A stretch of DNA of 50,031 nt, taken from sequence record PQ287653.1; one strand, written 5' to 3'. Each line of letters begins with the position of its first letter. The stretch's first letter is position 1. The DNA comes from Pseudomonas phage HHBS10_2. Below the pieces are notes generated by a model. It searched no databases. It saw only the letters and a program-made list of their open reading frames with translations, and was not told the origin of the DNA. Of this stretch, positions 31,007 through 31,710 are shown in pieces. A program made the position numbers and the translations under genes.

Positions 31007-31213
31007 TTAAAGTCTCCCCCAAGTCTGATAGTCCGCCTCAGTCATGTAACCATCATCACGACGTTCCAATTCATATTTACGCAAGTCTTCTCTATGAGCT
31101 TCACAGGCATGCTTGCTCATTCCCATACCAGTGGCTCTCCATACCGCTCTCACAGTTTTCTCTGGACAGAATTTACACCAAGGTTTTCCGTCCTTTTCTT
31201 TGATCATTTTCAT
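31007..31213 (-). CDS. small Cys/His-containing protein (68 aa), possible zinc finger
   Basis: CKFC...HACEAH pattern. Confidence 0.4.
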   Translation of the reverse strand: MKMIKEKDGKPWCKFCPEKTVRAVWRATGMGMSKHACEAHREDLRKYELERRDDGYMTEADYQTWGRL

Positions 31214-31710
31214 TCACCAATCTTCTCCTTTAGTTCTTCTCTAAAGTTATACACCATCCGACTTACAAAAGCTGCGTCAGCATCAGTTACCTCTACAATT
31301 TCCCTAGGCTTATAGCCCAGGATAAAATACAGATGGAGAACATCAGCAATGTTTGATGGACGCTCGGCGATAGCTCTGTCAATAAACTTTCGTAGACCAC
31401 TTTCAGTTTGAGAGAGTGCCACTCCATCTACTTCTTCCTCATCGAATTCTTCACACATGCCATACCGGCGTTCATCCCTCTTAAAGTCTCGAAGGGCGTT
31501 ATTGAGAATGGAATTGAACCAAGCTCCCAACTCTTTTCGTTCTGGATCATAGGAGTTCCAATATTTAAGGGCACGTACAAATGCTTCTTGCACAATGTCC
31601 TCTGCGTTCTCAGGAGTACCAGCACGGAACGACACACGCTTTACCAATTCATTGTAGTTGTTCTTAAAGAACCTATCCATAATCAGATTACGAGCTTTCA
31701 CATCAACCAT
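31210..31710 (-). CDS. sigma-70 family (ECF-like) RNA polymerase sigma factor
   Basis: region 2 like DIVQEAFVRALKYWNSY and C-terminal region 4 HTH-like segment; 166 aa. Confidence 0.65.
   Translation of the reverse strand: MVDVKARNLIMDRFFKNNYNELVKRVSFRAGTPENAEDIVQEAFVRALKYWNSYDPERKELGAWFNSILNNALRDFKRDERRYGMCEEFDEEEVDGVALSQTESGLRKFIDRAIAERPSNIADVLHLYFILGYKPREIVEVTDADAAFVSRMVYNFREELKEKIGE

Follow-up and report, generated by a model that had tools for sequence, protein, structure and literature searches.

Pseudomonas phage HHBS10_2 (record PQ287653.1) raises the question of how a phage with T7-related virion genes has its genome transcribed when it appears to possess no RNA polymerase of its own. 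The true T7-like phages of the Autographiviridae have a single-subunit T7-type RNA polymerase, whereas Pfam and tblastn searches find none in HHBS10_2. Its replication genes are accompanied by an ORF at 31210..31710 on the minus strand, which begins with an ATG start and encodes 166 aa. The first-pass annotation of the 50,031-nucleotide stretch analysed here (the window) described this ORF as a sigma factor in which both region 2 and region 4 are recognisable, regarded its pairing with T7-like virion genes and a lack of RNA polymerase as unusual, and proposed a phiEco32-like redirection of the host RNA polymerase linked to a reiterated motif family.

A complete Paundecimvirus genome with T7-related virion genes

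An 8-kb probe around the sigma gene matched 99 Pseudomonas phage records, the best of which was O4 (93.9% identity over 93% of the probe), a phage that the taxonomy line of its record places in the genus Paundecimvirus of the Zobellviridae. In a whole-window blastn comparison, the window and O4 (50,509 bp) are collinear from end to end, positions 1-4569 of the window corresponding to O4 3306-7871 and positions 47288-50031 to O4 561-3305. Since the two ends of the window are adjacent in O4 (1 at 3306 and 50031 at 3305), the window covers a complete genome in circularly permuted form and, as judged by this alignment, it is a Paundecimvirus (PA11/O4 genus) genome opened at the large terminase gene. 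With ~94% nucleotide identity to O4, it is new at the strain or species level.

The relationship of the virion genes to those of T7 holds up at several points. The portal protein matches the T7-type Head-tail_con domain (PF12236) with 31.4 bits at a cutoff of 27, and a T7-type RNaseH-like domain is recognised in the terminase with a Pfam score slightly under the cutoff. In addition, PA11 and CW02 have been assigned to the phiRIO-1 tail homology group, with tail and internal virion proteins related to those of T7 (Hardies et al., PMC4819975), and membership of a T7 supergroup has been ascribed to SIO1, VpV262 and CW02 (PMC4819975). Homing-endonuclease insertions are present within the capsid and RNR genes, and no Rfam family matches the capsid insertion.

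The genome has no detectable RNA polymerase gene

The ten largest ORFs of the window contain no RNA polymerase Pfam domain, PF00940 included, and a tblastn search of the window with T7 RNA polymerase gives a best E of 0.98, compared with 1817 bits in the self-control. Similarly, no RNA polymerase appears in the RefSeq annotation of O4. Three ORFs of 1554, 771 and 592 aa that have no Pfam match show full-length matches to PHROG families that are specific to phages of this group. In addition, the 1554-aa ORF has a match in an internal-virion-protein family and the 771-aa ORF has one in a tail-appendage family, while the family of the 592-aa ORF has no assigned function. When the 1554-aa and 592-aa proteins were compared with solved structures, no significant match was obtained. 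An N4-like RNA polymerase concealed in the 1554-aa protein was also considered and rejected, because the protein has no such similarity in Pfam or the PDB and its sole named PHROG match is the internal-virion-protein family. As the window is a complete genome collinear with O4, there is no remaining DNA where an RNA polymerase could hide or in which the search for one, suggested by the first-pass annotation, could be continued. By all these searches the phage genome appears to have no RNA polymerase gene, as had been claimed.

This arrangement is not as unusual as the first-pass annotation had assumed. Podophages of the T7 supergroup that have no RNA polymerase form a recognised group, the Zobellviridae, and their comparison with phiEco32 was already made in a paper of 2023. 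Within this family, Roseophage SIO1, Vibrio phage VpV262 and Klebsiella phage Klyazma likewise combine head, tail and internal virion proteins related to those of T7 with the lack of a T7-type RNA polymerase. The Paundecimvirus phages and CW02 also have RNA-polymerase-less genomes of ~50 kb, which show no difference of substance from HHBS10_2.

The sigma gene has been noticed as well. Orthologues that are 95-96% identical were found by tblastn in 12 records, and those of O4 (gp45, YP_009304524), PA11, TC6 (TC6_041) and K4 are annotated as 'RNA polymerase sigma factor', as are the DMTU_1 orthologue (92% identical) and gp21 of the Salinivibrio phage CW02 (30%). The sigmas of O4, PA11, TC6 and K4 and CW02 gp21 are orthologues of 161-167 aa that occupy a similar position between the primase/helicase and the DNA polymerase. 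A sigma factor in an RNA-polymerase-less genome is therefore already annotated in public records and is not new. The paper describing the TC6 genus makes no mention of a sigma factor, an RNA polymerase or promoters, and in the literature searched no paper discusses this sigma factor, pairs PA11 with a sigma factor, or gives expression or biochemical data on the orthologues.

The 166-aa ORF is a two-domain ECF-type sigma factor

The 166-aa ORF matches Pfam Sigma70_r2 (PF04542) over residues 15-82 with an E of 1.4e-14 and 54 bits (gathering cutoff 24 bits), and the NCBIfam sigma70-ECF superfamily model TIGR02937 with 58.5 bits (cutoff 42.9 bits), where its residues 12-163 correspond to model positions 4-164 of 165. 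The ORF thus passes the cutoffs of both models, sigma-factor HMMs having been proposed as a test in the first-pass annotation. Furthermore, it matches PHROG 1740, 'RNA polymerase sigma factor', with an E of 2.8e-38. Against the NCBIfam equivalog models of named cellular ECF sigma factors, it scores far under every cutoff.

An AlphaFold2 model built on an alignment of 53 homologous sequences (identity down to 26%) has a mean pLDDT of 87 and consists of two helical domains, residues 4-84 and 101-164, connected by a 16-residue linker (residues 85-100) of low model confidence. The sigma2 domain, the core-binding and -10-recognition region, is encoded at 31459..31701 on the minus strand (residues 4-84), and is defined by the Pfam match, by invariant alignment columns and by model helices at residues 4-30, 33-49 and 61-84 with pLDDT >90. 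The sigma4 domain, the expected -35-binding helix-turn-helix, is encoded at 31219..31410 on the minus strand (residues 101-164), and is delimited by TIGR02937, the family profile and the AlphaFold2 model, in which it forms four helices.

Region 4 goes unseen by Pfam when the single phage sequence is the query, but it is real, because the end-to-end TIGR02937 match, the family profile, the AlphaFold2 model and Foldseek all support it. The 53-sequence profile matches B. subtilis SigW over its whole length (E=1.5e-14) and also SigH, RpoE, AlgU, SigE and SigL; it finds the isolated SigW sigma4 chain 6jhe_A (E=1.4e-4) and FliA sigma4 too, and four members of the family have precomputed PF08281 assignments. 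In a Foldseek search of the PDB with the sigma model, the best 30 matches are all ECF sigma factors, with 150-180 aligned columns. Both regions named in the first-pass annotation are thus real. Only ECF sigma factors give whole-length alignments, whether by the family profile or by Foldseek, and the sigma1.1 and sigma3 domains are absent, the model of the 166 aa comprising two helical domains only. With HMM, profile, predicted structure and fold in agreement, the ORF is a sigma-70-family sigma factor of the ECF type (group 4) with sigma2 and sigma4 domains.

Nine residues are unchanged across the 53-sequence alignment (A36, E37, D38, A47, L48, Y50, W64 and I68 in the sigma2 domain, and F156), and most of the invariant or nearly invariant residues sit in the motifs AEDIVQEAF..RAL.Y and W-F..I..N. 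We take the residues of AEDIVQEAF..RAL and W-F..I..N to be the core-binding and -10-melting surface of ECF sigma factors. The conservation of these expected core-interface residues points to selection for function in the phage sigma family.

The sigma gene belongs to the replication module of a phage sub-clade

Directly upstream of the sigma gene, with overlapping stop and start, lies a DNA primase/helicase gene (31710..33425, minus strand; Toprim and DnaB_C in Pfam), and downstream lies a family A DNA polymerase gene (28950..30809, minus strand; PF00476), with two small minus-strand ORFs (31007-31213 and 30802-30990) intervening between sigma and DNA polymerase in this genus. The same order of primase/helicase, sigma and family A DNA polymerase genes is found in GP100, where the sigma factor is 45% identical, and in CW02 (30%), as well as on a 40-kb contig (L079, 48%) and a 49-kb contig (L078, 33%). 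A gene acquired by accident would be unlikely to stay at one position in such distant relatives, and the sigma gene is a stable part of the replication module in this sub-clade.

The 68-aa ORF that overlaps the sigma stop codon (31007-31213) has CxxC and HxCxxH spacing, and was therefore of interest as a conserved anti-sigma partner. This role was rejected, since the ORF has no Pfam match (its PHROG is of unassigned function), is unrelated to the CW02 ORF at the same position and is missing in GP100, L078 and L079. Among the ORFs of the window and of these four relatives, no conserved anti-sigma gene adjoins the sigma gene.

A protein search returned 96 clusters at E<=1e-5, all of ~160 aa and many of them on contigs of 47-53 kb, and phage records and metagenomic contigs were the only sources in which members of this family turned up. 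By tblastn, the sigma gene is present in 27 of 50,697 phage records, with Pseudomonas, Vibrio and Salinivibrio as hosts in addition to oyster-metagenome phages, and other Zobellviridae were not recovered as carriers in the same records. The gene is therefore a marker of the PA11/CW02 sub-clade, as opposed to the entire Zobellviridae, and a phage sigma factor is thus no strict requirement for late transcription in phages with this virion module.

Comparison with phiEco32 and with cellular ECF sigma factors

The podophage phiEco32 has no polymerase of its own; its early genes are read from sigma70 promoters, and its middle-gene sigma factor gp36 drives the middle and late promoters with help from gp79 (PMC8948821, PMC12276001). 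The promoter element of gp36 is tAATGTAtA, or AATGTA centred at -11.5, and the promoter of gp47, the sigma factor of phage 7-11, is GTAAtg-N16-aCTA (PMC8948821, PMC12276001). Phage sigma factors of the size found here drive late transcription in RNA-polymerase-less podophages, as exemplified by phiEco32 gp36 and 7-11 gp47 (PMC8948821, PMC12276001). Phage 7-11 is also without gp79.

The likeness to phiEco32 drawn in the first-pass annotation does not extend to the sequence or fold of the sigma factor. While gp36 has 214 aa, a modified sigma2, a shortened sigma4 and a requirement for activation by gp79, the HHBS10_2 protein is a standard 166-aa ECF sigma factor. In hhalign, gp36 aligns with the family profile over 41 region-2 columns (80% probability), its structure 9m7y_F ranks 33rd in Foldseek with an E of 0.1, and its tblastn match in the window has an E of 2.2. 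A homologue of gp79, the sigma70 inhibitor and gp36 activator, was not found in the window by tblastn (best E=0.34). By profile comparison and by its structural model, the phage sigma factor is much nearer to cellular ECF sigma factors than to gp36, which it resembles at the superfamily level only.

The genomes of the phiEco32/7-11 (Kuravirus) group and of HHBS10_2 nevertheless have the absence of an own RNA polymerase in common, together with a sigma gene in the block opposite to the late genes and early genes with sigma70-type promoters. In addition, phiEco32 and the window have ATP-grasp, amidoligase, COOH-NH2 ligase and amidotransferase genes in common, with E values of 1e-13 to 1e-37. As this cluster lies in the same transcription block in both phages, the resemblance in genome design is partly homologous. 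By analogy, phiEco32 gp36 and 7-11 gp47 are likely functional counterparts of the HHBS10_2 sigma factor.

Cellular ECF sigma factors, including B. subtilis SigW, M. tuberculosis SigH, SigE and SigL, E. coli RpoE and P. aeruginosa AlgU, agree with the phage protein in size, in signature residues and in their sigma2-linker-sigma4 architecture, and are its best profile and fold matches. Unlike these, the phage protein belongs to no named equivalog group, has no adjoining anti-sigma gene and is encoded in a lytic phage replication module. [quoted passage not shown]

Host-type promoters head the early block

Five perfect TTGACA -35 boxes are found at 46028..46846 on the minus strand, in a mostly non-coding stretch of ~1.3 kb that heads the minus-strand block, whereas by our estimate ~0.2 copies would be expected by chance per strand of 820 nt. 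Examples are TTGACA-N17-TAGAGT and TTGACA-N16-TAATAT, and the cluster is predicted to consist of host sigma70-type early promoters. With promoters of this type, the early genes would be readable by the unmodified host polymerase. These boxes are probably the reiterated motif that the first-pass annotation had in mind, and being of the host sigma70 type, they do not support the proposed connection between that motif and the phage sigma factor.

Directly downstream of one of the TTGACA promoters lies a boxA-like 13-mer, GTTCTTTAACAAT (46507-46519, minus strand), which differs at a single position from boxA of the E. coli rrn operons, TGCTCTTTAACAA. The 13-mer occurs twice in CW02, both times after a TTGACA-N17-TAnnnT promoter, which suggests antitermination of the NusB/NusE type for the early transcripts. 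AAAGAAC-N16-CGA sites of CW02 were considered as ECF promoters and rejected, since their opposite strand is boxA-like and follows sigma70 promoters.

A conserved candidate promoter block and a structured leader precede the late operon

Non-coding DNA is conserved in five lineages from the terminal repeat to the first late gene. It includes a block that is a candidate for the left-end (late) promoter, TGCATT(G)AC..TTTCTAGCAGAAATT, at 47234..47306 on the plus strand, which is conserved in the window, PA11 and four further sequences (L005, L009, L068 and L073), and, directly downstream of it, a conserved structured leader at 47310..47488 on the plus strand that was delineated with RNAalifold. When the 3' 150 nt of this non-coding DNA were folded from four lineages, 39 pairs were obtained, 12 of them with compensatory double changes, and the leader matches no known Rfam family. 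Given these compensatory changes, the folded part must be transcribed, and we infer that any promoter of the plus-strand operon therefore lies within 47234-47306.

The block itself reads TGCATTGAC..TTTCTAG.AG.AAAT and overlaps the inverted repeat AATTTCT-nnn-AGAAATT; in PA11 it takes the form TTGACA-N17-GAAATT. From its sequence, it looks more like a weak sigma70 promoter than an ECF promoter. Two further candidates upstream of the late genes were discarded. GGA(A/G)TT-N18-TCATGA at 47354, found in four lineages, was rejected as an ECF promoter because TCATGA forms the loop and closing pair of a covarying hairpin; with compensatory changes in the stem, it is RNA structure and not a -10 element. 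TATTAATTAAC has two exact copies upstream of late genes, a count that is not above chance when mismatches are allowed.

No reiterated bipartite motif of the ECF type was found in the window, GP100 or CW02, and k-mer and dyad enrichment in the upstream regions of these three genomes yielded no reiterated motif shared among them, and none in any of the three beyond those described here. Likewise, the gp36 (tAATGTAtA) and gp47 (GTAAtg-N16-aCTA) consensus promoters are not reiterated in the window.

Proposed redirection of the host RNA polymerase and its alternatives

Taken by analogy with phiEco32 gp36 and 7-11 gp47, redirection of the host RNA polymerase by the phage sigma factor is the most reasonable reading of this locus, with timing, core binding and promoters all to be understood as predicted. 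The minus-strand early and replication block starts at the five host sigma70-type promoters, and the sigma factor would accordingly be a delayed-early or middle product of transcription by the host sigma70 holoenzyme. Through sigma2 and sigma4 it would then bind the host core RNA polymerase and bring it to phage promoters. The likeliest target would be the plus-strand operon of 22 kb with the virion and lysis genes (47489-50031, continuing at 1-19468), where the phage sigma factor may stand in for the single-subunit RNA polymerase with which T7 itself transcribes its late genes. That the protein is a working sigma factor for phage genes is a probable reading, and that its target genes are specifically those of the late operon is plausible, though somewhat short of an even chance. 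Three observations weigh against the reading: searches of the window, GP100 and CW02 gave no reiterated ECF-like bipartite motif, the conserved block ahead of the late operon has more the look of a weak sigma70 promoter, and the other Zobellviridae were not recovered as carriers of the sigma gene.

A wider and rather doubtful proposal is that the PA11/CW02 clade takes over the host polymerase in three steps: sigma70 early promoters with an rrn-type boxA leader would act at the outset, a phage-specific orphan ECF sigma factor would then be supplied from the replication module, and a single promoter just inside the left terminal repeat would finally feed a conserved structured RNA leader in control of the entire 22-kb late operon. 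The promoter specificity would be unlike that of the classified ECF groups, and such a programme would be undescribed for T7-supergroup phages.

The sigma factor might also drive middle and not late genes, through a second repeated sequence that resembles the single-element AATGTA promoters of gp36. This sequence, motif A (TAATGCAAT..TAGAAAAATTTT), has three copies in the window, all on the minus strand and all members of one repeat family (D1): TCGAATAATGCAATGGnCAATGGCTG..TTAGAAAAATTTTTGGAGG at 39735..39789, upstream of the glutamine amidotransferase gene, and further copies at 43805-43859 and 19738-19792. The respective sites precede the amidotransferase cluster (39784), an early-region ORF of unassigned function (43854) and, past the RNR genes, a small ORF (19787). 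In the whole window TAATGC[AT]A is present at only four sites, always in intergenic DNA and co-oriented with the next gene; its AATGCA is one base from the gp36 consensus AATGTA centred at -11.5, the motif A copies are conserved at the same places in O4, and on direct reading of the sequence no sigma70-like -35 box stands ahead of them. However, there are only three full copies, two of which are 85% identical over 55 nt and could reflect a recent duplication and not constraint, and the fourth TAATGC[AT]A site (47431, plus strand) is not conserved in relatives. Furthermore, motif A is absent from GP100 and CW02, both of which have the sigma gene, so that it too lends no support to the proposed link between the sigma factor and a reiterated motif family, and a protein with a full sigma4 domain and far from gp36 would not be expected to use a single-element promoter. 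Middle-gene control through motif A is thus unlikely, and the motif is possibly a genus-specific promoter and leader cassette.

Another explanation places the action of the sigma factor mainly on the host, where it would compete with sigma70 or host ECF sigma factors such as AlgU for the core enzyme and so shut down or reprogram host transcription, and the phage genes would be read throughout by sigma70 holoenzyme with the aid of boxA-type antitermination. The strong sigma70-type promoters and the boxA-like 13-mer at the head of the early block fit this explanation, as do the sigma70-like reading of the late upstream block and the apparent lack of this sigma factor in most other Zobellviridae, and Bacillus phage sigma factors that act on host regulons are known (PMC9429907). 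The missing equivalog-level match to any cellular ECF sigma factor leaves mimicry of a specific host sigma unsupported, however, and the strict position in the replication module of very distant relatives suggests a role in the phage's own programme, which makes a mainly host-directed role quite improbable. Finally, the Pfam miss of region 4 in the single sequence and the lack of a conserved cognate anti-sigma gene beside it could be taken as signs that the sigma gene is a decaying, non-functional remnant of an acquired host ECF gene. With an intact frame, functional motifs invariant in 53 homologues, a confident two-domain model, and a family kept both in 96 clusters and in gene order, this view is largely refuted by conservation and has next to no likelihood. 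A sigma factor that redirects the host polymerase to phage genes remains the preferred reading.

If this reading is true, little changes in the general picture, since RefSeq already records the gene as that of a sigma factor and the RNA-polymerase-less T7-supergroup phages are already a named family. O4, TC6, K4 and PA11 infect P. aeruginosa and have featured in recent phage-therapy studies, and a compact, orthogonal pair of ECF sigma factor and promoter from a Pseudomonas phage could serve synthetic biology.

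Predicted RNA elements and regulatory sequences

The first late gene is preceded on the plus strand by a conserved, structured non-coding leader of ~150-180 nt (47310-47488), for which 39 base pairs are predicted. Compensatory changes across four lineages are found at 12 of these pairs, and the fold includes a GTTCTTCTC-ATGAA-GAGGAGGAC hairpin together with a GNRA hairpin, GCTCAC-GCAA-GTGAGC. When this leader was compared with Rfam, no family was matched.

In the early region, the minus strand carries a boxA-like 13-mer, GTTCTTTAACAAT (46507-46519), which differs from the E. coli rrn boxA by a single mismatch. 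The element lies a short distance 3' of sigma70-type early promoters and is also present in the Salinivibrio phage CW02 (L003), near 41945 and 41705. It is unchanged between the window and CW02, although the sigma proteins of the two phages share only 30% identity. Its location downstream of the early promoters and its identity in both genomes suggest that early transcripts undergo NusB/NusE-dependent antitermination.

Within the late region, the plus-strand stretch upstream of the scaffold gene (3633-3758) is extremely AT-rich, and contains the palindrome AGTATATACT as well as TA repeats. GP100 and three further relatives (L005, L007 and L009) have related palindromes of the AGTATACT type, while L010, L013 and CW02 likewise have AT-rich stretches at the pre-scaffold position, with a further one ahead of the endolysin gene in CW02. 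Candidate roles for this region are those of an operator, a strong internal promoter or an origin.

Genome ends

A G-rich block, CAGGGGGTTAGGGGAGGGGG (47207-47226, plus strand), is kept in all relatives compared, and together with the GGGG immediately upstream it provides four G-runs in a G-quadruplex-like arrangement. In the linear record of the closely related phage O4, the block is found near both ends, and it therefore falls within a short terminal repeat, for which we infer a length of ~74 bp. Judged from the sequence, the physical genome ends are at about window position 47200.

Window-specific insertions

The major capsid gene is interrupted by an 882-bp insertion (4570-5451) that is absent from O4 and contains a plus-strand LAGLIDADG_1 homing endonuclease ORF (4648-5433; E=1.2e-8). 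Exon 1 ends with ..AFIES and exon 2 starts with EQYSKF.., which is identical to the join in the uninterrupted O4 capsid. Because the insert is bounded by stop codons, its sequence is intron-like and an intein is ruled out; an Rfam search of the insertion gave no group I intron match. The ribonucleotide reductase small-subunit gene likewise has an insertion in the window but not in O4 (22126-22940), which is probably another mobile intron and has a LAGLIDADG_2 endonuclease ORF inside it (22181-22849, minus strand; E=4e-25).

In addition, a window-specific segment (19514-19741) follows the ribonucleotide reductase large-subunit gene, where the early and late gene blocks end convergently. It includes a small minus-strand ORF, upstream of which lies a copy of motif A, a three-copy element of the window, with a strong Shine-Dalgarno sequence, whereas the corresponding motif A of O4 is directed into the late operon at its 3' end, without an ORF behind the motif.

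Other features of the minus strand

A tRNA absent from the ARAGORN output is detected by Rfam at 42674-42753 (44.5 bits, E=2.5e-6). The corresponding place in O4 contains a tRNA-Arg, in a segment organised differently from that of the window. Furthermore, genes for an ATP-grasp (S6 glutaminyl-transferase-like) protein, an amidoligase, a COOH-NH2 ligase and a glutamine amidotransferase (35299-41028) form a cluster common to the window, CW02 and GP100, and have counterparts in phiEco32, namely gp80, gp83, gp84 and gp86 (E=1e-13 to 1e-37).
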